Assembly: GCA_023396915.1 (NCBI GenBank)
Contig: JAEWUV010000002.1
Coordinates: 3,171-67,170 of the forward strand
Direction of reading: 5' to 3'
DNA: 64,000 nt
Source of the DNA: Candidatus Parcubacteria bacterium
GTDB taxonomy: Bacteria; Patescibacteriota; Microgenomatia; UBA12405
This document shows positions 3,565-37,921 of this stretch, one piece after another; position 1 is the first letter of the stretch; each line of letters opens with the position of its first letter. Under the pieces are notes generated by a model. The model saw only the letters and a program-made list of their open reading frames with translations. It was not told the DNA's origin and made no database searches. A program made the translations under genes and the position numbers.

Positions 3565-3576
3565 AATATTTTTTTG

Positions 3577-10925: not shown

Positions 10926-10936
10926 TAAATTAATAA

Positions 10937-20486: not shown

Positions 20487-20494
20487 AGTTATGG

Positions 20495-20806
20495 TTACAT
20501 TTTTACTTCGACTTCTACTCCGGATGGTAAATCCAAATGCTGAAGACTATCAACAGTACGAAGACTAGTATTAGAAATATCGATAAGACGCTTGTGGGTA
20601 CGAACTTCAAAGTGTTCGCGAGCGTTCTTGTCGGTATGAGGACTAGTTAAAACAGTAATGGTTTTTTTTGTAGTAGGAAGAGGAATAGGACCCTCAACTT
20701 GGGCGCCAGCAGTAACCGCGGCTTCAACAATTTTGATAGCGGCTTCATCGATAATTCGATGGTCAAAAGATTTTAGTCTGATTCTGATACGGCTACCTTT
20801 TGGCAT
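20495..20806 (-). CDS. rpsJ: 30S ribosomal protein S10
   Basis: 103 aa; [16 protein letters not shown]. Confidence 0.95.
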
Positions 20807-20843
20807 ATTTTTTTTAATTTAATTTTTTAACTTTGACTTCAGA

Positions 20844-20871
20844 AATCTGCCTGCCAGTCGGCAGGCAGATT
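20844..20871 (-). promoter_or_regulatory. Perfect 12-bp stem-loop between tuf and rpsJ (attenuator, processing site or weak terminator)
   Basis: AATCTGCCTGCC-agtc-GGCAGGCAGATT; no clean U-tract on the minus transcript. Confidence 0.4.
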
Positions 20872-20892
20872 GTAAAGTTTCTAATTTACAAA

Positions 20893-22065
20893 TTATTTAA
20901 TAATTTTGGTAATAGCACCGGCACCAACAGTCAAACCACCTTCACGAATAGCGAAGCGTTGACCTTCTTGCATAGCAACCGGTTTAATTAATTTAACAGT
21001 AACATTGGCATTATCGCCAGGCATAATCATTTCAGTACCTTCGGCAAGGGCAATATCGCCAGTAACGTCAGTGGTACGAATGAAAACCTGAGGTCTGTAG
21101 CCAGAAAAGATTGGGGTATGACGACCGCCTTCTTCTTTTTTGAGTAACATGACTTGGGCTTCAAATTCGGTATGAGGAGTGATGGTTCCTGGTTTAGCAA
21201 GAACTTGTCCCCTTTCAATATCGTCTTTTTCAACACCACGAAGTAATAAACCGACATTGTCACCAGCTTGACCTTGATCAAGTTGTTTATGGAACATTTC
21301 TACTCCAGTAACAACGGCTTTTTTGGTATCACGAAGACCAACAATTTCAACTTCGTCATTAACTTTAACGATACCGGTATCAATTCTACCGGTAGCGACT
21401 GTACCGCGACCTTTGATAGAGAAAACGTCTTCGATAGCCATTAAGAATGGTTTATCGAGTTCACGAACAGGTTCAGGAATGTAGGTGTCTAAGGCTTCCA
21501 TTAATTTTTTAATGGATTCAACACCGTCAGCATCACCGTTAAGAGCTTTTAAGGCAGAACCTCTGATAATAGGAGTTTCATCACCCGGGAAACCGTATTT
21601 AGTTAATAAATCGCGGATTTCCATTTCAACTAAGTCTAGGAATTCTGGATCTTCAACTAAATCACATTTATTTAAATAGACAACCAATTTAGGAACGTTA
21701 ACTTGTTTGGCTAACAAAACGTGCTCACGGGTCTGAGGCATAGGACCATCTGGTGCAGAAACGACTAGAATAGCACCATCCATTTGAGCGGCACCGGTAA
21801 TCATGTTTTTGACATAATCGGCGTGTCCAGGACAATCAATGTGAGCATAGTGTCTCTTGTCGGTTTCGTATTCGATGTGAGAGATAGCAATAGTAACGAT
21901 TTTGGAAGCATCACGGACAGTACCGCCCTTGGCGATATCAGCGTAAGATTTTGCACTTCCTTGAATTTTTGAAATAGCGGCGGTCAAGGTAGTTTTACCA
22001 TGATCGACGTGACCAATAGTACCAACGTTAACGTGTGGCTTAGTTCTTTGAAAAGTATCTGCCAT
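20893..22065 (-). CDS. tuf: Elongation factor Tu
   Basis: 390 aa; [22 protein letters not shown]. Confidence 0.97.
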
Positions 22066-22148
22066 ATTTTCTCCTTTTGTTTTTATTTTTTTGTCTTGTT
22101 TAAGACTAAATATCTAACTAATAATATTTTAGCTTAAAATACTTTTGA

Positions 22149-22177
22149 ATTGTATCAACAAGTAAATAGCTTTGCAA
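22149..22177 (-). promoter_or_regulatory. Candidate sigma-70 promoter for tuf
   Basis: On the minus strand: TTGCAA, 17-nt spacer, TACAAT, about 80 nt upstream of the tuf ATG. Confidence 0.4.
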
Positions 22178-22279
22178 TGGGTTTAAAAGAAATTAAACCC
22201 GCAAAAATGCGGTAGAGGAATTATACCGGTTTTGAGGAAAAAATGTTAGAGGAAAATAAAGTAAATTTAAATAAAAAAA

Positions 22280-22302
22280 ATACCCCCTATAACAGGGGGT
22301 AT
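22280..22302 (-). terminator. Rho-independent terminator immediately after fusA
   Basis: ATACCCCCT-ataac-AGGGGGTAT hairpin preceded on plus by A8, giving U8 after the hairpin on the minus transcript. Confidence 0.65.
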
Positions 22303-22320
22303 TGCAGAACAAAATAAATT

Positions 22321-24435
22321 TTACTTTTCGCTGGGTCTGGTTAGAGCGGCAGTAAGTTTTTCCTGAATATCACGTGGAACAGGGTCGTAATGGCTTGGTT
22401 CCATATAAAATGAACCGCGACCTTGGGTTAAACTGCGGATAGTAGTGGCGTATCCTTGGACAGCTTCAAGAGGAATAAAAGCGTGAATGGTGGTAAAACC
22501 ATGGCTGTCTTCAGTGCCATTGATTTGACCACGACGGGCAGAAAGATCACCTATAACTGTTCCTAGAAATTCTGATGGAGTAGCCACTTCAAATTTCATA
22601 ATAGGCTCTAGGACTAGAGGTTTGGCCGCCTGGAAAGCATCTTTGATAGCGTAAGAACCGGCAATTTTAAAGGCCATTTCAGAAGAATCAACTTCGTGGT
22701 AAGTACCGTCATAAACACTAACTTTTAGGTCGGTACAAGGATAACCAGCAACGATACCTTTTTGAAGGGTTTCTTTAATACCTTTTTCGATAGCCGGAAT
22801 GAAACCAGCAGGGATAGCACCGCCTTTGACAGCGTTGACAAATTCATAACCTTCTCCCCTATTTTTAGGTTCAATTCTAATTTTACAATGACCATATTGA
22901 CCATGACCACCGGATTGGTGAATATATTTACCTTCACCTTCGGAATTAGCAGAAATAGTCTCACGGTAAGCCACTTGAGGTGAACCGGTTTTAACGCCGA
23001 CATTAAATTCACGTTTAAGACGATCAACAATGATTTCCAAATAAAGTTCACCCATACCAGCAATAGTGGTTTGTCCGGTTTCTTGGTTATAAGAAACTTT
23101 AAAAGTCGGGTCTTCAACTGCTAAACGATTTAAAGCCGCTCCCATTTTTTCTTGGTCATCGGCAGTAAGAGGTTCAATTGAAAGGGAAATAACTGGATCA
23201 GAAAATTGAATCGGGGAAAGAGAAATTAAATGGTTTGAATCACAAAGAGTATCGCCAGTGGTAGATTCTTTTAGACCGATACAGGCAACTATTTCTCCGG
23301 CAAAGCCCTCTTCAATACCTTCACGTTTATCAGCATGCATTAAAAGTAAACGACCAATACGCTCAGATTTCTTTTTGGTAACGTTGTAGACCTCAGAACC
23401 GGCTTTAAGAGTTCCCGAATAAACCCGAACATAAGATAAGGTTCCCACATGAGGATCAGACTGGACCTTGAAAAGTAATGCTGAGAGAGGTTCAGTTTTT
23501 TCCGGTTTTCTGGTTAAAACTTCATTAGTTTCTGGGTCAAAACCTTCAACTGGTGGCAGGTCGATGGGAGAGGGTAAATAATCGACTATACCGTCAAGAA
23601 TAGGATGGATACCTTTGTTTCTCCAAGCAGCGCCACAATAAATTGGGAACAATTTCCTATCAATAGTAGCTTTTCTTAGAGCGGCTTTTAATTCTGGGGT
23701 GGAAATTTCCTCATCATTTAGAAATTTTTCCATTAGAACCTCGTCTTCACTGGCAATTTTTTCTATCATTTCAGCACGAGCTTTGAGAGCTTTTTCTTTG
23801 AACTCTTCAGTAACTGGTTTTCTGGTAAATTCCATACCTTCTTCGTCTTTGTCATAAACAATCATTTCCATATTCATTAAATCAACCACACCCATAAAAT
23901 CATGTTCTTCACCAATTGGGATAACAACAGGAACTACTGGAGCATGTAATTTATCATGAATACTTTGAAGAGTACCAGCAAAAGAAGCACCGATTTTATC
24001 CATTTTGTTGACAAAAGCGATTCGTGGTACGCCATATTTATCAGCCTGACGCCAAACAGTTTCAGATTGGGCTTGAACTCCGGCATTACCATCAAAAATC
24101 ATGATGGCACCATCAAGTACACGAAGAGAACGTTCAACTTCGGCAGTAAAATCAACATGACCCGGAGTATCAATAATATTCAAACGGTATTCATGCCAAA
24201 ATGTGGTAATACAAGCCGACTGAATAGTGATACCTCGTTCTTTTTCTTGAACCATTGAGTCAGTAGTAGTAGTTCCCTCATCAACTGAACCAATTTTGTG
24301 AATTTTTCCGGTGTAAAAAAGAATACGCTCGGTAGTAGTGGTTTTTCCACCATCAATGTGGGCGATAATACCAATATTACGGACTTTTTCCATAGGAAGG
24401 TCGCGATTTTTGGTGAGTTTAATTTGGTCAGCCAT
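22321..24435 (-). CDS. fusA: Elongation factor G
   Basis: 704 aa; AHIDGGKTT, DTPGHVDF. Confidence 0.97.
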   Translation of the reverse strand: MADQIKLTKNRDLPMEKVRNIGIIAHIDGGKTTTTERILFYTGKIHKIGSVDEGTTTTDSMVQEKERGITIQSACITTFWHEYRLNIIDTPGHVDFTAEVERSLRVLDGAIMIFDGNAGVQAQSETVWRQADKYGVPRIAFVNKMDKIGASFAGTLQSIHDKLHAPVVPVVIPIGEEHDFMGVVDLMNMEMIVYDKDEEGMEFTRKPVTEEFKEKALKARAEMIEKIASEDEVLMEKFLNDEEISTPELKAALRKATIDRKLFPIYCGAAWRNKGIHPILDGIVDYLPSPIDLPPVEGFDPETNEVLTRKPEKTEPLSALLFKVQSDPHVGTLSYVRVYSGTLKAGSEVYNVTKKKSERIGRLLLMHADKREGIEEGFAGEIVACIGLKESTTGDTLCDSNHLISLSPIQFSDPVISLSIEPLTADDQEKMGAALNRLAVEDPTFKVSYNQETGQTTIAGMGELYLEIIVDRLKREFNVGVKTGSPQVAYRETISANSEGEGKYIHQSGGHGQYGHCKIRIEPKNRGEGYEFVNAVKGGAIPAGFIPAIEKGIKETLQKGIVAGYPCTDLKVSVYDGTYHEVDSSEMAFKIAGSYAIKDAFQAAKPLVLEPIMKFEVATPSEFLGTVIGDLSARRGQINGTEDSHGFTTIHAFIPLEAVQGYATTIRSLTQGRGSFYMEPSHYDPVPRDIQEKLTAALTRPSEK

Positions 24436-24442
24436 ATTTAGT

Positions 24443-24473
24443 TTTTCAGTCTATCAGATTTTCAGTCTGTCAG
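24443..24473. repeat. Tandem 16-nt direct repeat (TTTTCAGTCT[A/G]TCAG, two copies) immediately 5' of the fusA start codon
   Basis: Read directly: ttttcagtctatcag-a-ttttcagtctgtcag, ending 8 nt from the fusA ATG on the opposite strand. Confidence 0.5.
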
Positions 24474-24552
24474 TTTATTAAATTTGATAATTAAAAACTG
24501 CTGCGTTCAAGCAACAGCGGATGGGATTATGATACCATAGGAAAAGATTAAT

Positions 24553-25740
24553 ATGAATAGACGAAAAATTGCAATTATTGGCGGAGGATTGGGTGGACTG
24601 GTAACAGGATATTGGTTGTCAAAGAAAGGTGATGAGATAACTATTTTTGAAAAAGAGAATTTTTGGGGAGGTTTGGCAAGTGGGTTTGAAATTGAAGGAA
24701 CGATTTTAGATAAAAGCTATCGTCATATATTTAAAACCGATACAGATTTAATTGCTTTGATTAAAGAATTAGATTTGCAAAGCAGACTTAAGTGGTATAA
24801 AAGTTCGACAGGTTTGTTTTGGAAAGGAAAGATTTATCCATTTTTAACAGCAATGGATTTATTGAAATTTAAACCCCTTAATTTAATAGATAAATTTAGA
24901 ATGGGAATGATAGCTTTGTGGCTAAAATACGACAAAAATTGGCAAAAATATGAAAAAATCTTGGCTTACGAATGGATGAATAAGTGGGTAGGGGAAAGAG
25001 CTTATAAAGTTGTTTGGGAACCTTTGTTAAAAGGAAAATTTGATGATGTTTATAGAAAAATTTCGATGGCTTGGCTGTGGGCGAGGATTCACACTAGAGG
25101 AAATTCGGTAAATGAAAAAGGTGAAGAAATTTTAGGTTATCTTGATGGAGGATTTCAAATTTTAGTGGATAAATTGGTGGAAAAAATTAGAAAGAATGGT
25201 GGAATTTTAAAATTAAAAACCGGGGTTAATCGTTTGAAAAAACTAAGAAAAGAATTTGATTTGATTATAGATACTAGACCAAGTAAAAAAATAGACTATT
25301 TAGGCATGATTAGCTTGGTTTTTAGTTCAAACCAAGATTTGGGGGAATATTACTGGAATAATATAAACGATACCAAGTCCCCTTTTGTCGCTTTATTACA
25401 GCATACAAAGTTAGTAGGTAAAGAAAAATATAATAATAAAAATATCTATTATTTAGGAAAATATGTCTCGCAAAAAAATAAATATTTTAAGATGAGCGAT
25501 GAAAAAATTAAAAGCGAATGGTTTAAATATTTAAAGAATATCTTTCCGCAATTTGACATGAAAAAAGTTAGGGAAGTTAAAATCTTTAAATCAAAAGTAG
25601 CCCAACACATAGTTGGATTGAATTACAAAGTTCCTAAACATTGGATTAATAAAAAGACTTATCGAATGAATTTTGCTCAAATTTATCCGCAAGACAGAGG
25701 AATGAATTATGCGATAAAAGAGGTAAAAAAAATTACTTAA
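24553..25740 (+). CDS. FAD/NAD(P)-binding oxidoreductase with a protoporphyrinogen-oxidase/amine-oxidase-like fold
   Basis: N-terminal Rossmann IAIIGGGLGGLVTGYWL...IFEKENFWGG. Any sugar-related role is suggested only by the adjacent rfb genes. Confidence 0.55.
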   Translation: MNRRKIAIIGGGLGGLVTGYWLSKKGDEITIFEKENFWGGLASGFEIEGTILDKSYRHIFKTDTDLIALIKELDLQSRLKWYKSSTGLFWKGKIYPFLTAMDLLKFKPLNLIDKFRMGMIALWLKYDKNWQKYEKILAYEWMNKWVGERAYKVVWEPLLKGKFDDVYRKISMAWLWARIHTRGNSVNEKGEEILGYLDGGFQILVDKLVEKIRKNGGILKLKTGVNRLKKLRKEFDLIIDTRPSKKIDYLGMISLVFSSNQDLGEYYWNNINDTKSPFVALLQHTKLVGKEKYNNKNIYYLGKYVSQKNKYFKMSDEKIKSEWFKYLKNIFPQFDMKKVREVKIFKSKVAQHIVGLNYKVPKHWINKKTYRMNFAQIYPQDRGMNYAIKEVKKIT

Positions 25741-26627
25741 AGAGATAGCTGTTTTTTGATTTCAACTAGGCCTTCTTTTAGGGTTTTCATATTAATGCCT
25801 AAATTAGTGGCTTTTTGGTTGGAAGTGATAAGAGTTTTTTGCCAAGGACGAGAACCTTCCGGTTGAGATTTAATATATTCTGCTAAACTGGATGCTTGGA
25901 CTAAACTTTCGTCAAGACCAAAAGTTTGAGCAACAAGCTTGGCCATTTCAAAAGGAGAATGAGATGAAGAGCCAACCAAATGATAAATACCACTGTATTT
26001 ATTTTCAAAAAATTTATCCAAAGCGTAGGCAATATCATCAATAAAAGTGTAAGTACAGATTTGATCAGAGAACATTTTGACGACCTCGCCGTTTTGAAGT
26101 TTAGTTAAAACCTTTTTGATAATATCCGGTTTGATTTCAAAATTAGCCCGATAAGGGTAAGTAATACGAACAATGGCTGAATTATATCCAGATTCGGTAA
26201 TTACTTTTTCGCCTAAGTATTTAGTTTCACCATACCATTCAATCGGACTGGGTTCGTTGTTTTCTGTATAAGGAGTAGTTTTGGTACCATCAAAGACAAA
26301 ATCAGTGGAAATATAGATTAAATATTGATTATATTTTTTGACTAAGTCTAAAATGTTTCGAGTGCCCTCGACATTGAGTTGATAACAAATGCTAGATTTA
26401 TCCCCTCTTTGTTCCCAAGCAGCATTGGTGTCAGTAAAAGCGGCCATGTGTAAAACAGCAACAGCATCTTGGTGTTTTTCAAAGGCAGCCGCCAGATTAT
26501 CTTTGTCCAGAATAGAAACTCCGGTGTCCAGTGAAAAATCGACAAACTCATATTTATCTTTTAAGAGTTCAACTATTCGAGAGCCGACTAAACCGGAAAG
26601 ACCTGTACCAATAATCTTAGGTTTCAT
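25737..26627 (-). CDS. rfbD: dTDP-4-dehydrorhamnose reductase
   Basis: 296 aa; IGTGLSGLVGSRI Rossmann; RmlD-like length and order after rfbC. Confidence 0.8.
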   Translation of the reverse strand: MKPKIIGTGLSGLVGSRIVELLKDKYEFVDFSLDTGVSILDKDNLAAAFEKHQDAVAVLHMAAFTDTNAAWEQRGDKSSICYQLNVEGTRNILDLVKKYNQYLIYISTDFVFDGTKTTPYTENNEPSPIEWYGETKYLGEKVITESGYNSAIVRITYPYRANFEIKPDIIKKVLTKLQNGEVVKMFSDQICTYTFIDDIAYALDKFFENKYSGIYHLVGSSSHSPFEMAKLVAQTFGLDESLVQASSLAEYIKSQPEGSRPWQKTLITSNQKATNLGINMKTLKEGLVEIKKQLSL

Positions 26628-26630
26628 AAA

Positions 26631-27191
26631 TTACCACTCAAGTTTCATTAACTCTTCTTTGGCTTGGGAAAGAGTCGGCCAAAGTTTATCTTTTTCAGAA
26701 AGAATAGGTTTACCGTCGGTGTACCAGGTGATATTCAAATTTGGATCGTTCCACAAAAGACCGCCTTCTGACTCTTTATTGTAATAATTACTACACTTGT
26801 ATTCAAAATCGACCGTTTCACTAATAACATAAAAACCATGGGCAAATCCCTCAGGTATAAAAAACATCTTTTTGTTAGCGGCGGAAAGATGAGCTGATTC
26901 ATATTGCCCAAAAGTAGGGGAATTAGGACGAATGTCAACAGCCACATCAACAACTTCACCTTGGGTAACTCTGATTAATTTGGCTTGAGCGAAAGGAGGT
27001 TTTTGGAAATGAAGACCACGTAAAACTCCGATAGAAGAACGAGAATGATTATCTTGGACAAAATCAACGTCAACACCATTCTCGGCAAAAACTTTTTTGG
27101 AGTAGGTTTCCATAAAAAAACCACGATCATCAGAAAAAACCTGAGGTTCAATAGTGACGATGCCTTCTATTTTACTTTTTATAAAATTCAT
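26631..27191 (-). CDS. rfbC: dTDP-4-dehydrorhamnose 3,5-epimerase
   Basis: 186 aa cupin; DDRGFFMETY, RGLHFQ, FIPEGFAHGF. Confidence 0.9.
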   Translation of the reverse strand: MNFIKSKIEGIVTIEPQVFSDDRGFFMETYSKKVFAENGVDVDFVQDNHSRSSIGVLRGLHFQKPPFAQAKLIRVTQGEVVDVAVDIRPNSPTFGQYESAHLSAANKKMFFIPEGFAHGFYVISETVDFEYKCSNYYNKESEGGLLWNDPNLNITWYTDGKPILSEKDKLWPTLSQAKEELMKLEW

Positions 27192-28195
27192 TATCTCTCC
27201 TTATTTAATTTTTTATAAAATTCTTCAGCTTCGGCTTTGGTTTCTTGCCACCACTGACTATTGTTAGTATACCAATCAATTGTTTGTTTTAGACCAGATT
27301 CTAGATTATATTTTGGTTCCCAACCGAGATCTTTTCCGATTTTATCCCAATTTACAGCATAGTTGTCATGAGCCGGACGATCATCGACATATTCAATAAA
27401 TGATTCATCTTTATTCATAAGTTTAAGAATCAGCTTAACCAATTCGATATTTGAAGTACCTTTTTTAAGACCCCCAATACAATAAGTCTCCCCTATCTTG
27501 CCATTTAATAAAATTAATTCTATAGCACGACAATGATCTTCGACATGAAGCCAGTCGCGAAAATTTAATCCCTGACCATAAACTTTTATTTTTTGATTGG
27601 TTAAGAGGTTAGTGATAGATCTGGGAATCATTTTTTCAGGATGCTGATAAGGACCATAGTTGTTAGAACAATTACTGATAGTGACAGCTAACCCAAAGGT
27701 TTTATAAAAAGATCTAACTAAATGATCAGAAGAGGCTTTAGAAGCAGAATAAGGACTGGAAGGGTCGTAAGGGGTAGATTCGCCAAATTGCTTGTCTGAA
27801 TTGAAAGGAATGGAACCGAAAACTTCGTCAGTAGAAATATGGTGGAATCTTTTGTTGTATTTTTTGGCGGCCATTAAAAGATTGTAAGTACCTAAAACAT
27901 TGGTACGAACGAAAAGTGATGGATCGTCAATTGATCGGTCAACATGAGACTCGGCGGCAAAATGAACAATAGCATCAACTTGAGAAACTAATTCATCAAC
28001 AATTTTCTCGTCTAAAATATCACCTTTGACAAATTGATAATTTGACTTTCCCTCAAATTCGGTTAAATTACGCGGATTGGCGGCATAAGTCATCTTGTCG
28101 AGATTAATAATCGAATCATTGGGATGATTAGTAAACCAAAGCTTTATAAAATTACTACCAATAAAACCTGAACCACCAGTGACTAAAAGTTTCAT
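27191..28195 (-). CDS. rfbB: dTDP-glucose 4,6-dehydratase
   Basis: 334 aa; VTGGSGFIGSNF, YSASKASSD catalytic YxxxK. Confidence 0.9.
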   Translation of the reverse strand: MKLLVTGGSGFIGSNFIKLWFTNHPNDSIINLDKMTYAANPRNLTEFEGKSNYQFVKGDILDEKIVDELVSQVDAIVHFAAESHVDRSIDDPSLFVRTNVLGTYNLLMAAKKYNKRFHHISTDEVFGSIPFNSDKQFGESTPYDPSSPYSASKASSDHLVRSFYKTFGLAVTISNCSNNYGPYQHPEKMIPRSITNLLTNQKIKVYGQGLNFRDWLHVEDHCRAIELILLNGKIGETYCIGGLKKGTSNIELVKLILKLMNKDESFIEYVDDRPAHDNYAVNWDKIGKDLGWEPKYNLESGLKQTIDWYTNNSQWWQETKAEAEEFYKKLNKER

Positions 28196-28232
28196 ACAGA
28201 TTTATTATATCTAATCAAGGAATCTTTAGCTA

Positions 28233-29624
28233 CTATTCTTCTTCGGTTGGGGTGGCGGTGACTTTGATAGTTGGAGTAACTTTGACACTGGGAGTGGCAG
28301 TAGCGGTTTTGGTAGAACCAGTAGAACTAAGATCAGTACCAATAGTGAAAACAACGTCATAGTTAGAAGCAGTTTTTAAATCACTGGTATATTCAGCTGG
28401 AAAATAATCCCCTAGCGATGATTCAAAATAGGCAGAATAAGCCTTGTCTTTGACTTGGACTGAGTTTTCGGTAACGTTTTTACTAGCATTGCCAGTAGAA
28501 ACATCTTCAAAACCAAGAGCAACCAGTTTAGCCTTGAGAGCGGAGGCCTGACCATTAATGTCAGTACCATTTAAAACTTGGATTTTTATATCTTTGTCAA
28601 TTTCAGCAACAGTGGGAGTGGGAATTTGAGTGGCAGTCGGTTGGATTTCTGATTGGGTTTGATTATCTTGATTACTATCGATAATTTTATCCTGTTTATT
28701 TTTGTTGAAAAAGAAATAAACCAAGAAAGATACTACGATAAAAGAAAAAACAGCAACTGCTATTATAGGTAATAAATTCTTTTTATTATTCATCTTGGGT
28801 GATTGATTTAAACTATTATCTTTTGGTGCTTTAATTATATCACTAATAATCCCAATAACCGGAAGTGGTAAATTTGAAAGATGATTAAAATTTTGAGCAA
28901 TTTGACTTTCATTATAGGGAGTTTTTTCCATTTCTGTAGAGGTAATTATCTCTAAATCATTACTTTCCGGATAATAAATTTTTTTGACGGGAGCACTAAA
29001 ATAAAGTTGAGCGTAATTGACAGTTTTTTGAATATCAAGATTACTTTTTTTGAAATTAGCGGTTAGATAAACTTGATTATTTTGAGAAAGTAAAAGGGTA
29101 TATTCATTATTGTTGAGCGGATAAATCAAGAAAAATTCACTTAAAAATATTTTTGAAAAAATATTGGAAATGGCAGCAGAAACTGGGGTGTAAGAACTAA
29201 TTTGAACACCTAATAAGTTTAAATTATCCTTAAGCGTTTCGAATTTGGATTTGTTGTAAATTAGAGTGTTGATAATGGTTTTTTCTTTGCCTTGGATGAG
29301 GGAATAATTTATATATTCCGAATCAATCTTAAAATCAACAGCACTAGAAGCCAGTCCAATAACCTCTTTGACGTCAATGGATTCTATTTTGGTGTCATAA
29401 ACAAAAGATTTGGTAATTACGACATTATCGGGAATTAGAATAGATAAAGAAGTAATCTTATTTTGGTGTAAAAAAGTAGATAAACTTTCAATATCTTTTG
29501 CCGATTGTTTAGTCCAAAGATTAATATCGAGGCTAAAAAAATTATTTTCTTTTTTTTCTAAATAGATTTCAACTGATTTATCTTTTGGCCAGACTACGAC
29601 TTTTGGTTTTGAAAATAATCCCAT
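28233..29624 (-). CDS. Membrane protein: cytoplasmic FtsA/PilM-like(?) domain, one TM helix, extracellular LytR_C-type domain and a Thr/Pro-rich tail
   Basis: TM LLPIIAVAVFSFIVVSFLVYFFF. C-terminal IKIQVLNGTDINGQASALKAKLVALGFEDVSTGNA resembles the LytR/CpsA/Psr C-terminal domain. N-domain segment LLGVQISSYTPVSAAISNIF resembles the actin-like PilM/FtsA fold. Confidence 0.5.
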   Translation of the reverse strand: MGLFSKPKVVVWPKDKSVEIYLEKKENNFFSLDINLWTKQSAKDIESLSTFLHQNKITSLSILIPDNVVITKSFVYDTKIESIDVKEVIGLASSAVDFKIDSEYINYSLIQGKEKTIINTLIYNKSKFETLKDNLNLLGVQISSYTPVSAAISNIFSKIFLSEFFLIYPLNNNEYTLLLSQNNQVYLTANFKKSNLDIQKTVNYAQLYFSAPVKKIYYPESNDLEIITSTEMEKTPYNESQIAQNFNHLSNLPLPVIGIISDIIKAPKDNSLNQSPKMNNKKNLLPIIAVAVFSFIVVSFLVYFFFNKNKQDKIIDSNQDNQTQSEIQPTATQIPTPTVAEIDKDIKIQVLNGTDINGQASALKAKLVALGFEDVSTGNASKNVTENSVQVKDKAYSAYFESSLGDYFPAEYTSDLKTASNYDVVFTIGTDLSSTGSTKTATATPSVKVTPTIKVTATPTEEE

Positions 29625-29662
29625 ATATTAGTGTAACAAGTTTGAAAAGTTTTTAAAGTCAT

Positions 29663-29694
29663 AAAAAAATTCCCTGAGTTTAATCAGGGAATTT
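29663..29694 (-). terminator. Rho-independent terminator after rpsG (end of the rpoB-rpoC-rpsL-rpsG unit)
   Basis: AAATTCCCTGA-gtttaa-TCAGGGAATTT, an 11-bp perfect stem; an A7 run on plus gives a U-run on the minus transcript. Confidence 0.65.
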
Positions 29695-29712
29695 ATAGTT
29701 TTAAAATAAAAT

Positions 29713-30195
29713 TTACCAACGTAAATGGGCGAAAGCTCGATTAGCTTCGGCCATACGTTCAACTTCAAGTCTTTTGGCGACTGCAGAACCGCTGTTGCTA
29801 AGAGCATCGTTTAATTCGGCGGCAATTTTTTGGGCAAAAGAATGATATTGTTTGTTGGCTCTGGCACGGGAAGCGCCAACTAACCAACGAATAGCTAAAG
29901 CATTTTGACGATTACCCCGAACTGGAGTTGGGATTTGATAAACAGCACCACCAATACGGCGAGGCCTGACTTCGACTTTAGGTTTGATATTTTCCATGGC
30001 TCTTTCCAAAACTTCAAGTTCAGATTCTTTGGGAAAATCTTTTTTGAGAAGTTCAAGCGCTTGATAAATTTGTTTCTCAGCAGCATTACGTTTGCCATCT
30101 TTCATGGTTGAGTTGATGATTTTGGCGACCAAAACGCTATTATAAATACTGTCTGGTTCAACTTTTCTGATTTTACTAGTTCCTTTTCTGGACAT
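29713..30195 (-). CDS. rpsG: 30S ribosomal protein S7
   Basis: 160 aa; SRKGTSKIRKVEPD. Confidence 0.95.
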   Translation of the reverse strand: MSRKGTSKIRKVEPDSIYNSVLVAKIINSTMKDGKRNAAEKQIYQALELLKKDFPKESELEVLERAMENIKPKVEVRPRRIGGAVYQIPTPVRGNRQNALAIRWLVGASRARANKQYHSFAQKIAAELNDALSNSGSAVAKRLEVERMAEANRAFAHLRW

Positions 30196-30243
30196 AGATT
30201 ATGTTTGTTAGCTATTAGCTTTTAGTAAATAGTTAAATATTAA

Positions 30244-30669
30244 TTAAGCGGATTTAGAAGCACCGGGTTTTTTGGCACCATATTTGCTTCGGGATTGTAA
30301 ACGACCCTCAACTCCACCGGCATCAAATTTACCTCTGATAACGTGATAACGGACACCAGGTAAGTCACGAACACGACCGCCACGAATTGAAACGATACTA
30401 TGTTCAGCAAGGTTATGTCCAATACCAGGAATATAAGCAGTAACAGAAGATCGGTTACTAAGTTTAATAGTGGCAGTTTTTCTTAAAGCAGAATTAGGTT
30501 TTTTTGGAGTCATGGTTTTGACTACAGTGACAACACCTTTTTTGAAAGGATTAGTGGTCTTTTTAAAACGATTAGTAATCGTATTAAAATTATCACGAAG
30601 AGCCCCTGTTTTAAGTTTTTTAATTCTAGGTGTACGACCTTTTTTGATTAATTGGTTATAAGTAGGCAT
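30244..30669 (-). CDS. rpsL: 30S ribosomal protein S12 (with a lineage-specific internal insertion)
   Basis: Start trimmed to [12 protein letters not shown]; the ORF-track 5' extension overlaps the rpoC 3' end. [10 protein letters not shown] motif. Only 4 nt separate the rpoC stop from this ATG. Confidence 0.93.
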
Positions 30670-30673
30670 AAAT

Positions 30674-33600
30674 TTAATTTTTTTCAGATTGGTCCTTGCC
30701 AACTGGAATAAGACGTCCGATAATAACATTTTCCTTGAGGCCAATCAAGTCATCGACTTCAGCAATTAAGGAAGCTTCGGTCAAAATACTAGTGGTCTGT
30801 TGGAAAGAAGCGGCTGAAAGCCAAGATCCAGTAGTTAGAGCTGATTGGATAAGCCCTAAAAGAATTCTCTTTCCTTTGGCTGGTTTAGCATCTTTGTCTT
30901 TTTGTTTGGCTTTTTCGTTAGCGGCGTTAAAGCTAGCTAAAGAAACAACCTGACCATAAAGGAAAGTGGTGTCACCAGGATTTTCAATCTTAATCTTACC
31001 ACTCATTTCTTTGATAATGACTTCTATGTGTTTATCATGGATAGTAATTCCCTGAGATTCATACACTCCCTGGATATTATCAATTAAATATTTTTGAGCG
31101 GCTTCAATACCTTTGATTTCCATTATTTCTCGGACATCAAGAGACCCTGAAGAAAGTTGGGACCCTTTGGCGACTAAATCACCATCAGAAACCAAGAGGT
31201 TAGCGTTTGAAGGTAAGATATAGGTAATAGTTTTAGTAACTTTATCATCATCTTTGCCGACAAGTTTAATTTCGTAACCATCAATATTTTCCTTAACTTT
31301 AACTTTACCCGAAACTTCGGCTAAAGGTGAAGGAAGTTTTGGCATACGGATTTCGAAAAGCTCTTGGACACGAGGTAAACCTTGAGTAACGTCGACACCA
31401 ACGACACCTCCAGTGTGTTTGGTTCGAAGAGTAAGCTGAGTACCAGGCTCACCAACTGATTGAGCGGCAACGACACCAACCGGAACACCAATATCAACCA
31501 TTTTACGGGTTGATAAGTCCCAACCATAGCATTTGCTACAAAGACCGGTTTCAGCCGAACAAGTTAGAGGTGAACGAATATCAACCGATTTGATTTCTTT
31601 TTCATCAATTACTTTTATGGCCTCATCATCAATGAGATCACCTTTTTTGAAAATTACTTTTTTAGTCTTTGGATCAATAAGATCATTGGCTAAAATTCTT
31701 CCTAAAATACGGCGTAAAAAGTAACGTTCACGACCTTTGTCGTTGGCTTCGATAGTGATGAATTTGTCGGTACCACAGTCGTCCATACGAATTATGGAAG
31801 TGTGAGCGGCATCAACTAGACGACGGGTCAAATAACCAGCGTCAGCTGTTTTAAGAGCGGTGTCGGCTAAACCTTTGCGGGTTCCACGAGCACCAGTAAC
31901 GTATTCAAAAACTGACAAACCTTCACGGAAGTTAGACTTGGTAGGAAGTTGAACGATTTTACCGGTAGGATCAACCATAAGACCACGCATACCAGAAAGC
32001 TGTTTGATTTGATCTTTGGAAGCACGCTTAATACCAGCGGCAGAAACGATACGAATTGGAGAGTCAATATCAAGTGTATCCCAAGTTTTTTCAGCAATTT
32101 CTTCGGTTTTTTCTAGCCAAATATTTTGAGAAAGACGTTTTTTCTCATCATCACTAATTAGACCCATTTTGTAGTTATCTTCGATTTCGGCAACTTGTTT
32201 ATTGGCACTATTAATAATAGTGTCTTTTTCCGGTAAATAACCACAATCTTCCATTGATAAAGAGATTCCTGAAAGAGTGAACCCTTCAAACCCAATATCT
32301 TTGAGAGAATCGATTAATTTGACAGTTTTAAGACGGCCGGCAATATCAAGAGATTTAACCACTAAGTCATTAAGTGCTTTTGATCCCGCTAAAGATTCAT
32401 TGAGGAAACCAAATTCTTTTGGAAGTATTTTATTAAACCAAATACGACCAAAGGTAGTTTTAATAATTTTACCGTCAATACGAACAGCAATAAGCTCTCT
32501 GAGATCAATTTTTTTAGATTGATAGGCTAATTCAGCTTCTTCGACATCGGCAAAAATAGGTAAATTCTTGAAATCATTACCATCAACTTTGACTAAATCT
32601 TGAGAACGGACTGAAGTTATGTAATAACAACCTACTGCCATACCTTGGGAAGGAATTGAGATAGGAGTACTATCAGCCGGTTTAAGTAAGTTGTGAGAAG
32701 GTAACATTAAACGTTTGGCTTCTTTTTGGGAGGCGTCAGAAAGGGGTAAATGAACACCCATTTGGTCACCGTCAAAGTCAGCGTTGAAACCTTTACAAAC
32801 ACATGGATGAAGACGAATAGCTAAACCGTCAACTAAAACTGGTTTGAAAGCCTGAATAGAAAGTTTGTGAAGTGTAGGAGCGCGGTTAAGAAGAATATAT
32901 TTATTCTTGGTAACTTTTTCCAAAACATCATAAACTTCGGTTATCCGATGGTCAATTAAGTTTTTAGCACTTTTAATGTTTGGAGCAATGCCAATAGCCA
33001 TAAGTTCACGAAGAACAAAAGGTCTAAACATTTCTAGGGCAATTTCTTTTGGTAAACCAACTTGATTAAGTTTAAGTTCTGGGCCGACAACGATAACTGA
33101 ACGGCCAGAATAATCGACACGTTTACCTAATAAATTACGTCGGAAACGACCTTTTTTACCTCTTAATAAATCAGAAAGTGAACGAGGAACTCGTTTTAAA
33201 CTTTTCCTTTTATTTTTGGAACTTTTTTGAGCATCAATAAGAATGTCCACAGATTCCTGTAACATACGTTTCTCGTTGCGCAAAATAATTTCCGGGGCAC
33301 CAAGTTTCAGTAATTTTTTAAGACGGTTGTTACGATTAATCAAACGACGATATAAATCGTTTAAATCAGAGGTAGCAAAACGGCCGCCAGTGAGTTGGAC
33401 CATAGGACGAAGTTCCGGTGGAATAATAGGAATGTGAGTTAAAACCATTGATTTGGGATCAATGTTGTTATCAGACATACCGGTTAAGATACGGATTTTG
33501 TACATGATTTTCTTTTTCTTGAGCTTTGAACTAGTTTTGTTTAATTCAGTTTTAAGGTTTTTTAAAGTTTCAGAAATGTCAATTTGGCTTAAAACTTCAA

Positions 33601-34417
33601 GTAAACTTTCAGCTCCCATTCCAGCAGTAAAAAAGATATCAGCTTTAAATTGAGAAAGATAAAAACTTTCTTCGTCTGTAAGAGTACTTAAAACATCTAA
33701 GGTTTGAATTTTTTCTTCAAGATATTTCATCAAACCTTCAATTCGATTTTTTTCAGCTAAACCTTTATTTTCAATTTTTTGGATATCTTGTTTGAGACGA
33801 ACGTCACGTTCTTCTTGAGCAATGGAAAGTTGATCTTTGTTTTTAATCTTGGATTTTAGTTCTTTTTTCTCTTCCTCGGTTTGTTTGGTTTTCAACTCGA
33901 TATTCTTTTTGACATCAGCATCAATCTGTTCAATCCTCTTTTTAGATTGTTGACCCAAATTTTCTAAAGCTTCTTTTCTTTTTGAATCGTCGATAGAAGT
34001 GACTAAATATTTAGTGAAATAAACTACAGCTTCCAAATCTTTTTGAGGAACATCAAGCAAAACTCCAATTGGAGAGGGAGTGTTTCGAAGATACCAAAGA
34101 TGAGTGGTTGGAGCGGCTAAAGTGATATGTCCCATCCGTTCACGACGAACTTTTGAAACGGTAACTTCAACACCACAACGATCACAAATTACACCTTTGA
34201 ATCGGATTTTTTTGTATTTTCCACAATAACATTCATAGTCTTTTGATGGTCCAAAAATTTTCTCACAAAAGAGACCGTCTTTTTCAGGTCTCCAACTTCT
34301 GTAATTAATTGTTTCTGGTTTAGTAACTTCACCGTGGGACCATTCGAGAATATCGGCTGGGGAAGCTAATTTAATTTGTAGACCAGAAAAATCGATCATA
34401 TTTTTAAATTTAAACAT
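30674..34417 (-). CDS. rpoC: DNA-directed RNA polymerase subunit beta'
   Basis: 1247 aa; Zn finger [27 protein letters not shown] catalytic motif. Confidence 0.97.
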
Positions 34418-37400
34418 TATTGTTCCTCCTTTATTTCATCTTCTAATGGTTTGTCAATTTCCTCAGAAACAGTTAAACCTTCGGCTTCAACTTCAGCTTC
34501 CAGTTCGACGGTTTCTTTGTCAGAAACAGACGGGATAATTTCTTCCGGTTTGATTTCTTCTGAAGAAGTGTTCTCTTCAGAGGTTTCTAATGGAGATTCT
34601 TTGACTCCAACAGGAGAAATATCTAAGGCTAGACCGGCAAGTTCTTTGGTAAGAACTTTGAAAGATTCTGGAATAGCCGGTTCGGGAATAGTTTCCCCTT
34701 TGATAATGGATTGGAAAGCATGAGTACGACCTTCAATATCGTCAGATTTGAGAGTTAACATTTCCTGGAGAGTATGAGCAGCACGATGTGCTTCAAGAGC
34801 CCAAACTTCCATTTCTCCAAGTCTTTGACCTCCCATACGAGCCTTACCTCCGAGAGGTTGTTGAGTAACTAAGGAGTATGGACCAGTAGAACGTGAATGA
34901 ACTTTGTCATCAACCATGTGGACGAGTTTTAGAATATAGCCAATACCAACGACGGTTTTTTGATGGAAAGCTTCTCCGGTACGACCGTCATAAAGTTGAA
35001 TTTTGGAGTTACTGGGTAAGCCAGCAGTTTCTAATTCTTTTGAAATTCTATCTTCAGGATATTTTTCAAAAACTGGAACTGCATACTTTTTATTAAGTTT
35101 AAGACCGGCATAAGCTAAAGTTGTCTCTAAAATCTGACCCAAGTTCATACGAGAAATAACAGAAATTGGAGAGATAACTAAATCTATTGGAGTACCGTCG
35201 GCAGTTCTAGGCATATCATAGGTAGGCCAAACACGGCCAATAACTCCTTTGTTGCCATGGCGACCGGCGATCTTGTCCCCTTCTTGAATTCTTCTGATTT
35301 GAGCAACATAAACTTTGACGATTTTGTTGACACCTGGATCGAGTTCATCACCATCGTCTTTAGATAAGATATCAACTTTAATGACAACACCACCTTCGCC
35401 GTTTGGTACGCGAAGAGAAGTGTCTTTAACTTCACGGGCTTTTTCACCAAAAATAGCACGTAATAGTCTTTCTTCTGCAGAAAGCTCTTTTTCACCACGA
35501 GGTTCAACTTTACCAACTAAAATATCGTTTGGTCCGACAGTGGCACCAATCATGACGATACCGTCTTCGGTAAGTTTAGCTAATTCGTTTTCAGAAACAT
35601 TAGGAATATCTTTGGTTAATTCTTCAGACCCTAATTTAGTTTCAACAACTTGAGCTTGATATTCATAAATTTGAATGTTAGTTAATATATCTTCTTTGAC
35701 TAAACGATCAGAAATTAAGAAAGAATCTTCGTAGTTTAAACCATCTAATTCAGTGTAAGCTACCAATAAATTTTGACCGATAGATAATTCACCACCATCA
35801 GTGGACGGACCATCGATGAGTAAGTCACCGGCTTTAACAACATCACCTTTGTTAACTACACCTCTTTGGTTGTAGCAAGTACCATATGGAGAAGTCCTTT
35901 CAAATTTAGATAAATAATAAGTTTCTGTTTTACCATCGGTACTAATTTCGCTTTGGTCGTGGTAATCAGCAGAAACTTTTTTGTCGAGAGCAATAACTAT
36001 TTTGCTACCATCAACAAAAGTAACTTTACCTGAATGATTGGCTAAAACTGTTCGTTTCATGGATGTAGCAACGGCACCTTCCATGCCGGTTCCGACAATA
36101 GGAGATTTTGGAGCGATTAAAGGTACGGCTTGGGTCTGCATGTGGGAACCCATAAGAGCACGGGTAGCATCGTCATGATCAACAAAAGGAATTAATGAAG
36201 CAGAAGCGCCAACAATTTGGTTAGGAACTAAATCAATATATTCAACTTGTTCAATAGGTCCTTCAATAAACTCTCCTTCATAACGAATAGGAACCCATTC
36301 TTGTTTAGTTACCTCATTTTCATCAAAGCTAATTCCTAGATGAGTAATTTTTTTATCATATTCATCGTCGGCATCTAGATAGAAATAATCATCAGAGATG
36401 GTATAACCACCTTTGGTTTTTATTAACTTTCTGAAAGGTGCTTGGATAAAACCATATTTATCAATTTGAGCATAAAGAGCAAGATAAGTAACCAAACCAA
36501 TGTTTGGACCTTCAGGAGAACGAACGGTACAAATACGACCATATTGAGAAGTGTGAACGTCACGGATAGAGAAAGCGGCCCGATCACGAGTTAAACCACC
36601 AATACCAACAACAGTGACACGACGTAAAAGATCAAGTTCAGATAAAGGATTAGTTTGATCTAGAATAGCCGATAATTGGTTTGATCTGAAAAAGGAGTTA
36701 AGGGTTGAAATAAGTGGTTGAGGATTAATCATTTGACTAGGTGACGGTTTTTCTTTGGTAGAAATCAAAGACATTCTTTCTTTGACCATTCTTTCAAATC
36801 TAGCCATGGCTGGACGAAGAGCAATTTGAGAAACGATTTCACCACAACGTCGAAGTCGGCGGTTTGCCAAACTATCAATATCATCAAGACGAGTCACCTC
36901 ACCTTTTTGAAGTTGGATTAAGTATTTGACAGTAGCAATTAAATCTTCTTTTCTTAAAACCCAATTTTCTTTGTTGTTATCGTCAAAATCAAAACCGAAT
37001 TTTTTATTAATTTTATATCTGCCAACGTTACCAAGTTCATAAGTTTTAATGTCAAAAAATCTTTCTTCGAAGAATTTTTGGGCATTTTCTAAAACTACAG
37101 GTTCCCCTGGTCGGAGTTTTCGATAGAATTCCAAAATAGCTTCCTCAGAAGTTTTGGAGATATCGGCTTGAATGGTTGGGACAATAAGGTCACCGAATTC
37201 GGACATTAATTGTTTGTCGTCCATTTGGCAAGCGGCTCTCAAAAGAATAGTAGCCGGAAATTTCTTTTTTCTGTCAATACGGGCAAAAACAACATCTTTT
37301 TTACCAATGAAAAATTCTAGCCAAGAACCCTTGTTAGGACGAAGTTCAGCGTTATATAAAGTTTTACCAGTAGCAATGTCGCGCTCTCCGGTGAAATAAA

Positions 37401-37812
37401 CGCCAGGAGATCTGACTAATTGGTTGATGATGCCTCTTTCAATACCGTTAATAATGAAAGTACCTTCATCAGTCATGGTGGGCAAATTTAAGAAAAAGAC
37501 ATTTTCTTCTCTGACATTTCCGGTTCTTTTGTTAGTTAAAGTGGTTTTTATACGGACAGGGACGGTGTAATTAAGCTCTTTTTTCTTGGCAGTTTGTGGG
37601 TCTAAGGTAATAGGGTCGTAAGTAATTTCACCAAGTTCAAGTTGCCAGTTGTTTCCGGTGTAATCAACGATGGGAGAGACGGCTTGGATGGTTTCTTTTA
37701 GTTCTCGGTCTAGAAAATCTTTCCAGGATTCTTTTTGAATTTTAATTAGGTCTAATTTAGGGAGATTTGGGTAATTTTTACCCCAAGAGGTTCTTTTAAC
37801 GGTAGGCATCAA
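34417..37812 (-). CDS. rpoB: DNA-directed RNA polymerase subunit beta
   Basis: 1131 aa; rifampicin-cluster region and GEMEVWALEA. Confidence 0.97.
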   Translation of the reverse strand: MMPTVKRTSWGKNYPNLPKLDLIKIQKESWKDFLDRELKETIQAVSPIVDYTGNNWQLELGEITYDPITLDPQTAKKKELNYTVPVRIKTTLTNKRTGNVREENVFFLNLPTMTDEGTFIINGIERGIINQLVRSPGVYFTGERDIATGKTLYNAELRPNKGSWLEFFIGKKDVVFARIDRKKKFPATILLRAACQMDDKQLMSEFGDLIVPTIQADISKTSEEAILEFYRKLRPGEPVVLENAQKFFEERFFDIKTYELGNVGRYKINKKFGFDFDDNNKENWVLRKEDLIATVKYLIQLQKGEVTRLDDIDSLANRRLRRCGEIVSQIALRPAMARFERMVKERMSLISTKEKPSPSQMINPQPLISTLNSFFRSNQLSAILDQTNPLSELDLLRRVTVVGIGGLTRDRAAFSIRDVHTSQYGRICTVRSPEGPNIGLVTYLALYAQIDKYGFIQAPFRKLIKTKGGYTISDDYFYLDADDEYDKKITHLGISFDENEVTKQEWVPIRYEGEFIEGPIEQVEYIDLVPNQIVGASASLIPFVDHDDATRALMGSHMQTQAVPLIAPKSPIVGTGMEGAVATSMKRTVLANHSGKVTFVDGSKIVIALDKKVSADYHDQSEISTDGKTETYYLSKFERTSPYGTCYNQRGVVNKGDVVKAGDLLIDGPSTDGGELSIGQNLLVAYTELDGLNYEDSFLISDRLVKEDILTNIQIYEYQAQVVETKLGSEELTKDIPNVSENELAKLTEDGIVMIGATVGPNDILVGKVEPRGEKELSAEERLLRAIFGEKAREVKDTSLRVPNGEGGVVIKVDILSKDDGDELDPGVNKIVKVYVAQIRRIQEGDKIAGRHGNKGVIGRVWPTYDMPRTADGTPIDLVISPISVISRMNLGQILETTLAYAGLKLNKKYAVPVFEKYPEDRISKELETAGLPSNSKIQLYDGRTGEAFHQKTVVGIGYILKLVHMVDDKVHSRSTGPYSLVTQQPLGGKARMGGQRLGEMEVWALEAHRAAHTLQEMLTLKSDDIEGRTHAFQSIIKGETIPEPAIPESFKVLTKELAGLALDISPVGVKESPLETSEENTSSEEIKPEEIIPSVSDKETVELEAEVEAEGLTVSEEIDKPLEDEIKEEQ

Positions 37813-37878
37813 AAATTTAATTTCTAACTAAAATGAAAGTCAGCAAGTTATGTACCAACCGCTCGCCGAATAGGTGAT

Positions 37879-37907: not shown

Positions 37908-37921
37908 TGGGGGAAAATAAA

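Follow-up and report, generated by a model that had tools for sequence, protein, structure and literature searches.

The str operon of Escherichia coli, Bacillus subtilis, and most bacteria has the gene order rpsL-rpsG-fusA-tufA and forms part of the canonical rpoBC-str-S10-spc-alpha supercluster. Its rpsG-fusA junction is among the most conserved gene adjacencies in bacteria. Here we describe a 64,000-nucleotide stretch of contig JAEWUV010000002.1 (assembly GCA_023396915.1, deposited as Candidatus Parcubacteria bacterium; hereafter the window), in which rpsG and fusA are separated by genes for a LytR_C-domain membrane protein, for three steps of the dTDP-rhamnose pathway, and for a flavoprotein. 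This split is an old inherited trait of the whole Shapirobacteria lineage, not a recent insertion.

In Proteobacteria, the known insertions are located at the borders between operons of the ribosomal supercluster, whose colinearity is under selection, and in Salmonella breaking the colinearity of these operons costs fitness (PMC6735719). With regard to the envelope genes, published surveys describe dTDP-rhamnose synthesis as conserved in classes of the candidate phyla radiation (CPR), Microgenomatia among them (PMC9166423), and Patescibacteria have been proposed to carry rhamnose polysaccharides in their walls (PMC11809585). Within its limits, our literature search returned no paper on the arrangement in Shapirobacteria and nothing specific on rhamnose in Shapirobacteria, on the CPR str operon, or on LytR_C together with PilM.

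Phyletic distribution of the interrupted str operon

Genes were called from a six-frame list of open reading frames (ORFs) combined with Pfam and NCBIfam scans of the window. The str genes rpsL, rpsG, fusA, and tuf were found in the expected order and on one strand. The contiguity of rpsG and fusA is broken by a 5277-bp gap with five genes, one of them on the opposite strand, and by a terminator-like hairpin after rpsG (Table 1). The genes were identified with E-values of 1e-31 to 1e-300, at which chance is no concern. A preliminary description of the window, made from the sequence alone, had reported a str arrangement split by a 5.3-kb cell-envelope block, and its coordinates and gene identities are upheld by the ORFs and by Pfam and NCBIfam, including the end of rpsG at 29713, the start of fusA at 24435, and the five genes named between them. 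The terminators that it placed after rpsG and fusA correspond to candidate hairpins with T-runs at 29694–29667 and 22303–22279.

One genome per species was scanned with the S7 (RpsG) protein, which yielded 80 loci with 91% down to 43% identity, and twelve window proteins were located in all of them by tblastn. The loci (cited below by L numbers) come from many independent studies, with assemblies from NCBI, ENA, JGI, and Logan that include contigs of 0.3–1 Mb. The source lineage of the window is Candidatus Shapirobacteria (Microgenomates, CPR), to which the close S7 loci belong. Fifty-five Shapirobacteria loci (S7 identity 57–91%) continue past rpsG and 27 of them reach fusA; the contigs of L034 and L048 stop too early past rpsG for the arrangement to be judged. 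The gene of the LytR_C protein was the next co-oriented homologue after rpsG in 55 of 55 loci. A slot of 3.0–8.1 kb, closed by the opposite-strand flavoprotein gene before fusA, was present in all 27 loci that reach fusA; in L024, L041, and L044, the flavoprotein gene is not the neighbor of fusA. Outside this clade, rpsG and fusA are adjacent in three more distant Microgenomates (L057, L058, and L061) and in 15 of 15 non-CPR loci extending past rpsG (Verrucomicrobiota, Kiritimatiellales, Thermaceae, and others), which confirms the earlier view that the split is unusual. The synteny comparison proposed in the preliminary description thus revealed a lineage trait, belonging to a class-like clade and not to the whole phylum.

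The composition of the block is native. The GC content at third codon positions (GC3) is 0.25–0.29 in the five block genes, compared with 0.20–0.33 in 21 other window genes measured. The identity of the block genes to those of the window co-varies with RpoC identity, with Spearman's rho of 0.89 for LytR_C, 0.78 for rmlB, 0.74 for rmlC, 0.82 for rmlD, and 0.66 for the flavoprotein. The split is not recent because it is common to all Shapirobacteria loci, the GC3 is native, and the identities of the block genes track that of RpoC. It is therefore extremely improbable that a horizontally acquired glycan island recently landed in the str operon of one strain or species. Three features would suit such an island, namely the slightly higher AT content of the block (GC 0.329, compared with 0.355 for the window), the differences in slot content between lineages, and an rmlC of a different type (34–38% identity) in L038, L045, L046, and L049–L051. 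Together, they indicate that the cargo in the slot is exchangeable. For the block as a whole, however, a recent island was rejected, as it is contradicted by the same flanks and order in all 55 loci from many independent studies, by a GC3 indistinguishable from that of neighboring genes, and by co-divergence with RpoC; moreover, the block showed no noticeable integrase, tRNA, or repeat boundaries, although no scan for tRNAs or repeats was run. The "insertion of accessory sugar genes" of the preliminary description, taken in a recent sense, is thus not borne out, and the GC check that it proposed gave no sign of foreign origin, since GC3 of 0.25–0.29 is found in both block and flanks.

A chimeric contig, or another artefact of assembly or binning, is practically negligible as an explanation. 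The sequences are metagenome-assembled and many records are wrongly labeled taxonomically; nevertheless, the synteny is identical in dozens of independent assemblies, long contigs included, and on these grounds a chimera was rejected. Furthermore, the window matches positions 393,721–457,720 of the 906,714-bp ENA scaffold LEMO22-1_SAMN17215431_METAG-scaffold_1, with 5188 of 5188 compared bases identical, and the window flavoprotein is 100% identical to a protein on that scaffold.

Loci L001–L003, L005, L008, and others are deposited as "uncultured Gammaproteobacteria", "Woesebacteria", or "Pseudobdellovibrionaceae". These mislabeled metagenome-assembled genomes are clearly Shapirobacteria by the identity of RpoB, RpoC, S7, and EF-G and by synteny. 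Misnamed bins of this kind would be flagged by a simple synteny marker of Shapirobacteria, namely the LytR_C gene next to rpsG.

Two loci from other Microgenomates (L055 and L056, S7 51% identical) are also without fusA after rpsG, with unrelated content in its place. L055 has an opposite-strand pair of small ORFs (10476–10995), toxin-antitoxin-like as judged from their sequences alone, and L056 has a 564-aa polytopic membrane protein after rpsG (2038–3732). The rpsG-fusA junction may therefore be generally fragile in Microgenomates and perhaps was broken more than once.

Composition and growth of the slot

The slot content differs markedly between Shapirobacteria loci. L098 and L099 have the order rpoB-rpoC-rpsL-rpsG-LytR_C-fusA-tuf-rpsJ, to which no more than a small DUF5665 ORF is added, and their LytR_C protein is the most divergent member of its family (30% identity). 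The slots of L053, L054, and L039 contain the LytR_C gene and the flavoprotein gene only, without rml genes. L027 and L028 have rmlB as the only rml gene, L086–L089 have rmlB-rmlA, and L031, L041, L043, and L045 have rmlA-rmlB-rmlC-rmlD; rmlA thus lies inside the slot in these last eight loci. YecM, HD-like proteins, and a second RmlD-like short-chain dehydrogenase/reductase are also among the cargo.

Opposite-strand genes for NUDIX hydrolases (~135–256 aa) are located between LytR_C and rmlB in L004, L007, L017, L018, L022, L025, and others, and at least two of their clusters have a Pfam NUDIX match. These proteins may be nucleotide-sugar hydrolases. The window, with a LytR_C-rmlB spacer of only 37 nt, has no such gene. 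In L038, L045, L046, L049, L050, and L051, rmlC is 34–38% identical to that of the window, with rmlB 69–81% identical where present, which indicates that rmlC was replaced by a different type within the slot of this subclade.

In a neighbor-joining tree of RpoC (single-gene, unbootstrapped, and with L053 not included), L098 adjoined the outgroups, followed by L054 and then by all other Shapirobacteria. The constant and apparently first-arrived slot gene is thus that of the LytR_C protein, not the sugar genes. The simplest reading is that the slot grew stepwise, acquiring first the membrane protein, then the flavoprotein, and then the sugar-nucleotide genes with variable cargo. The earlier notion of sugar genes as the inserted element has to be revised accordingly: the rml genes are optional and LytR_C is constant, as illustrated by L098 and by the three slots with no rml gene.

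Alternatively, the ancestor could have had the full block (LytR_C, rmlABCD, and flavoprotein), with secondary reduction of the slots in L098, L053, and L054. CPR genomes are prone to gene loss, loss or relocation of rml genes has demonstrably taken place in the clade (some loci have rmlA in the slot and others have it elsewhere), and the single-gene tree carries no support values. Even so, we regard this loss model as rather unlikely, because the nested pattern (LytR_C; then with the flavoprotein; then with rml) matches the branching order from the outgroup, and because two independent, graded losses would be needed exactly in the two deepest branches. Stepwise growth of the slot remains the preferred course.

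The LytR_C protein

LytR_C (residues 345–431) was the sole Pfam match in the window protein; no PilM, T2SSL, or FtsA model matched. In the AlphaFold model, which was built with 62 homologues, the mean predicted local distance difference test score was 76, rising to ~90 across the N-domain. The model comprises an actin-like (ASKHA) fold at residues 1–262, a transmembrane helix at 285–310, the LytR_C domain at 345–431, and a disordered Thr/Pro-rich tail. The cytoplasmic N-domain is predicted to be a PilM/GspL-like pseudo-ATPase domain, and the LytR_C domain is predicted to lie outside the cell. The PF13399 match and the predicted fold agree with the preliminary assignment as a PilM-like and LytR_C membrane protein.

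The phosphate loops (DxG and Gly-rich) of PilM and FtsA are absent in GspL. In the family alignments, residues 1–262 contained no invariant Gly and no DxG motif, so that the N-domain is probably a non-catalytic scaffold, as in GspL. A phmmer search with the N-domain against 1.84 billion representative proteins returned only 35 clusters, of which the full-length ones were all of 436–525 aa with the domain at the N-terminus. LytR_C was detected by Pfam in 24 of 24 family members tested, with no other domain. A profile search of the PDB with the N-domain gave no match, and neither the 64-kb window nor the 20-kb loci showed an association with pilus, secretion, or division genes. The protein therefore belongs to a family restricted to this lineage, which combines a topology like that of GspL with LytR_C as the ectodomain.

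It had been suggested that this protein attaches a rhamnose-containing polymer to the wall, that is, that it acts as an enzyme like the LytR-CpsA-Psr (LCP) ligases. PF13399 does occur at the C-terminus of actinobacterial LCP ligases, and rmlB, rmlC, and rmlD follow the gene in an apparent operon. However, the catalytic domain (LytR_cpsA_psr, PF03816) was present in 0 of 24 family members, and the N-domain, which has an actin fold and lies in the cytoplasm, shows no conserved motif for catalysis or nucleotide binding. Without the LCP ligase domain, the protein is unlikely to attach the polymer. In addition, two relatives have bona fide LCP genes at another locus, close to rmlA, and the LytR_C gene is kept where the slot has no rml genes (L098, L053, L054, and L039). 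The absence of PF03816 and this retention led us to reject the LCP-ligase role, which we consider very unlikely.

A role in translation or transcription, with an incidental link to the envelope, is still less probable. It is suggested by the Pfam family name, which includes "transcriptional attenuator", by the strict adjacency to rpsG in every locus, and by the distance of only 19–26 nt from the rpsG stop codon in deep lineages. Yet the protein is predicted to be anchored in the membrane with its LytR_C domain outside the cell, and it has no nucleic-acid-binding domain. LytR_C proteins of known phenotype (Rv2700/Cei) affect the envelope, which also weighs against such a role.

The dTDP-rhamnose pathway

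RmlB and RmlC of the window exceed the NCBIfam equivalog cutoffs. No rmlA was detected in the 64-kb window by tblastn or Pfam, in line with the absence of rfbA from the block in the preliminary description, and the rest of the window contained no glycosyltransferases or LCP gene either. The concern over a missing rfbA, for which a search of the genome had been proposed, was removed when an rmlA homologue was found on the same scaffold at 364,081–364,803, ~54 kb from rmlB. It encodes a short form of 240 aa. The order at this locus (L094, scaffold 354,081–374,803) is trmD(-), a GT2+GtrA fusion, rmlA, pyk(-), and ksgA, where the fusion glycosyltransferase beside rmlA is a GT2+GtrA_DPMS_TM protein of 398 aa. 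Since rmlA lies on the same scaffold, dTDP-L-rhamnose synthesis (RmlA, RmlB, RmlC, and RmlD) is probably complete.

The same second locus was found in L081 (same contig as L060) and L083, which are without rmlA in the slot, and there it includes a true LytR_cpsA_psr (LCP) gene. In the genome of the window, a pyruvate kinase gene is inserted at the rmlA locus, and there is no LCP gene within 10 kb. The likely polymer-handling enzymes are thus encoded elsewhere than in the slot. These results locate the rhamnose pathway genes of the uncultured Shapirobacteria.

The flavoprotein

The flavoprotein, whose gene is divergent from fusA, has a fold like that of phytoene desaturase and protoporphyrinogen oxidase (PPO). 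It did not reach any equivalog assignment: the TIGR00562 score was 54 bits with a cutoff of 98, and the CrtI, CrtD, and HpnE models scored far below their cutoffs. A sequence search of the PDB gave only Rossmann-level matches apart from Pyrococcus furiosus PF1083 (3nrn), and no single substrate class stood out in the fold search. CPR bacteria are not known to synthesize carotenoids or heme. The convergent rmlD (-) and flavoprotein (+) genes have overlapping stop codons within one TTAA (25737–25740) and no intervening terminator. Transcription of either gene should continue antisense into the other.

Candidate regulatory signals

A box of the form TGnTATCAT, TGnTATGAT, or a close variant was found 5' of fusA in 26 of 26 Shapirobacteria loci scanned, and it is kept even where the flavoprotein gene is not the neighbor (L024, L041, and L044). 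This conservation points to a clade-wide extended -10 promoter belonging to fusA itself. In the window, the box is followed by a leader hairpin with a minimum free energy of -11.4 kcal/mol (z = -4.05). In 18 of the 26 loci, folded one by one, a hairpin starting 9–12 nt past the box and then a T-run were present, with several unrelated stem sequences. An Rfam scan of positions 20000–38500 at E ≤ 1 returned no matches; the fusA leader is thus not accounted for by any known riboswitch or r-protein leader. The hairpin could stabilize the mRNA against the RNase J encoded in the window, attenuate transcription, or stop antisense read-through from the rml operon, which itself has no terminator.

Between this hairpin and the ATG of fusA, short tandem repeats occur in nearly every lineage, their repeat character being kept and their sequence not. 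The units are a 16-nt CTGAYAGACTGAAAA (twice) in the window, ATTACTA (four times) in L036, and TTCTTAATTCCTAA (twice) in L038; repeats were also noted in L006, L018, L023, L046, and L053. The repeat region contains little G and lacks a Shine-Dalgarno sequence.

A regular-expression search 5' of the LytR_C gene located a TAnnnT box at 5–10 nt from the ATG in 39 of 56 loci (42 within 2–10 nt). The box often has the form TGnTAnnnT, and most of the remaining loci carry TAAACT, as judged by eye. The position of this box suggests that the LytR_C transcript is leaderless. A terminator-like GC hairpin with a T-run follows rpsG in most of the closer relatives of the window. In the deeper Shapirobacteria, the rpsG-LytR_C spacer is only 19–26 nt and contains no terminator, so that the two genes were probably once co-transcribed.

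In the spacer after the LytR_C gene of the window, a perfect TATAAT (28204–28209) stands 8 nt 5' of the rmlB ATG (28193–28195). The layout of this start matches that of LytR_C, with a -10 box near the start codon and no Shine-Dalgarno sequence, whereas tuf has a strong AAGGAG. This genome may therefore have many leaderless starts.

Other genes of the window

The features of the region are listed in Table 1. The rpoC stop codon TAA is followed by 4 nt (ATTT) and the rpsL ATG (30669), exactly as first described, and similarly tight rpoC-rpsL spacing (3–5 nt) was found in L086 and L098. The remainder of the window is housekeeping in character, with recA, uppP, and the genes for r-proteins, YceG, sortase, AlaRS, FtsK, ProRS, RNase J, PNPase, IF-2, and NusA.

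Table 1. Genes and candidate signals between rpoB and rpsJ in the window.
Feature	Position	Strand	Evidence and remarks
rpoB	34417..37812	-	First of rpoB-rpoC-rpsL-rpsG unit; ORF; tblastn 70–92% identity in all Shapirobacteria loci
rpoC	30674..34417	-	ORF
rpsL (ribosomal protein S12)	30244..30669	-	TIGR00981, 184 bits
rpsG (ribosomal protein S7)	29713..30195	-	TIGR01029, 173 bits
Terminator-like hairpin (11 bp) and T-run 3' of rpsG	29667..29694	-	Hairpin scan
Extended -10-like box TGtTACACT, candidate leaderless-type promoter	29630..29638	-	5 nt 5' of LytR_C ATG
LytR_C protein, 463 aa, bitopic	28233..29624	-	PF13399 at residues 345–431, 38 bits (cutoff 22)
rmlB/rfbB, dTDP-glucose 4,6-dehydratase	27191..28195	-	TIGR01181, 459 bits (cutoff 365)
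rmlC/rfbC, dTDP-4-dehydrorhamnose 3,5-epimerase	26631..27191	-	TIGR01221, 246 bits (cutoff 156)
rmlD/rfbD-like dTDP-4-dehydrorhamnose reductase	25737..26627	-	PF04321, 165 bits (cutoff 27)
FAD-dependent oxidoreductase, PRK07233 family	24553..25740	+	NF005560, 387 bits (cutoff 252); Amino_oxidase
Extended -10 box TGGTATCAT, candidate fusA promoter	24529..24537	-	Cross-lineage sequence conservation
fusA leader hairpin (8 bp stem, 24518–24497), then T-run	24492..24518	-	Stem begins 10 nt past -10 box
Two tandem 16-nt units (CTGACAGACTGAAAAT, CTGATAGACTGAAAAA), fusA 5' region	24442..24473	-	Sequence reading
fusA (EF-G)	22321..24435	-	TIGR00484, 997 bits
Terminator-like hairpin (11 bp) and T-run 3' of fusA	22279..22303	-	Hairpin scan
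tuf (EF-Tu)	20893..22065	-	TIGR00485, 666 bits; clear AAGGAG ribosome-binding site, 255-nt spacer 5'
rpsJ, start of S10 cluster	20495..20806	-	ORF; tblastn 76–87% matches in relatives

Directly 5' of rpoB, where rplL is expected, a 288-aa protein (37922–38788, -) has a match to the protease-inhibitor family Pacifastin_I (E = 6e-9), which is otherwise known from arthropods. At 41993–44895 (-), the sortase gene overlaps the end of the gene of a 729-aa protein without a Pfam match, which may be a sortase substrate, and a 723-aa protein (61457–63628, -) bears a dockerin type I domain. Both of these large proteins are candidate surface proteins of the CPR cell.

Discussion

Taken together, we consider it likely that the rpsL-rpsG-fusA-tuf cluster was broken open at the rpsG-fusA junction in the ancestor of Shapirobacteria and has been kept open ever since, with the LytR_C gene as constant occupant of a slot that grew stepwise, with separate transcription units around it, and with rmlA some 54 kb away. 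According to this scenario, the gene of the bitopic LytR_C protein would have held its place directly after rpsG in the same orientation, and the gene of the PRK07233-family flavoprotein would have settled beside fusA on the opposite strand. Different combinations of rmlA, rmlB, rmlC, and rmlD, and cargo such as NUDIX hydrolases, would then have accumulated between the two. The units of the present locus would be rpoB-rpoC-rpsL-rpsG, ending at the terminator; LytR_C-rmlB-rmlC-rmlD, with a leaderless-type start from an extended -10 box that precedes the ATG by 5 nt; the convergent flavoprotein gene; fusA, with a separate extended -10 promoter and, near the 5' end, a hairpin with a U-run; and tuf with the S10 cluster. 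RmlA, and then RmlB, RmlC, and RmlD, would supply dTDP-L-rhamnose for a rhamnose-containing envelope glycan.

Several observations weigh against parts of this scenario. Many loci carry taxonomic labels that cannot be relied on (several are deposited as "uncultured Gammaproteobacteria"), so the clade was delimited here by sequence similarity and not by curated taxonomy. The order of accretion draws on one unbootstrapped neighbor-joining tree of RpoC and on two basal lineages. Promoter-like hexamers are no commoner than chance in the AT-rich window (52 found, 51 expected), so the promoter assignments depend on conservation across lineages. The same count affects the promoter candidate proposed earlier for tuf: promoter-like sites are indeed present there, but as consensus matches only. 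The leader hairpin is absent in 8 of the 26 loci, and RNAalifold found no consensus pairs in a MAFFT alignment of 20 fusA leaders, because the hairpins differ in length and were aligned out of register. With regard to the glycan, RmlD scored 156 bits on TIGR01214, below the cutoff of 224, the best NCBIfam match of RmlA (TIGR01207, 320 bits) is below the cutoff of 360.65, and no rhamnosyltransferase or LCP gene was found in the parts of the genome of the window that the analysis covered.

For the LytR_C protein itself, we put forward, as a doubtful proposal, that it could be a previously undescribed envelope-spanning scaffold that defines Shapirobacteria and was recruited into the core str cluster, with a level tied to ribosome synthesis, and that it might couple a cytoplasmic partner to a wall glycopolymer, its slot having since become a privileged landing site for sugar-nucleotide genes. 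If so, the partner could be a division, pilus, or glycan-export machine. In any case, the split flags a lineage-specific envelope protein of undescribed role. A whole CPR lineage with a broken rpsG-fusA junction, and with conserved signals that would fit a separate fusA promoter and a 5' hairpin, also offers a natural experiment on the rewiring of essential operons.

The genes of this locus are themselves ordinary and do not constitute a new kind of system. What is unusual is the stable, clade-wide interruption within the str operon, the lineage-specific GspL-like/LytR_C occupant, and the conserved new signals before fusA. The flavoprotein falls below the cutoffs for HemY, CrtI, HpnE, and Glf alike, and its likeness to PPO, phytoene desaturase, and UDP-galactopyranose mutase is one of fold only. 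Compared with GspL of type II secretion and PilM-PilN of the type IV pilus, the LytR_C protein has no detectable sequence similarity to either and no secretion or pilus genes nearby in the window. Its outside domain is LytR_C, whereas that of GspL and PilN is ferredoxin-like. The actinobacterial LCP ligases with a C-terminal LytR_C domain, as well as Cei/Rv2700, have no 262-residue cytoplasmic actin-fold domain, and the window protein in turn is without the LCP catalytic domain of those ligases.

Like the rmlABCD/rfbBDAC operons of Salmonella, Streptococcus, and Mycobacterium, the window has tightly packed genes for RmlB, RmlC, and then an RmlD-family reductase. Unlike them, its rmlA is unlinked and lies 54 kb away beside the GT2-GtrA glycosyltransferase gene, no glycosyltransferase or transporter genes adjoin the rml operon, and this operon is headed by a non-enzymatic membrane protein inside a ribosomal cluster. 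With respect to the canonical str operon, the gene order and orientation are the same, and, as in the canonical supercluster, rpoBC is located directly upstream and tuf-rpsJ (S10) directly downstream. The window differs in the distance of 5.3 kb between rpsG and fusA, which is occupied by five genes (one of them on the opposite strand), in the terminator after rpsG, in the leader hairpin of fusA and the separate promoter-like box that is conserved in the clade, and in the joining of rpoC and rpsL in one unit by a 4-nt spacer. In contrast to the insertions described in Proteobacteria (PMC6735719), the interruption in Shapirobacteria lies within the str operon.

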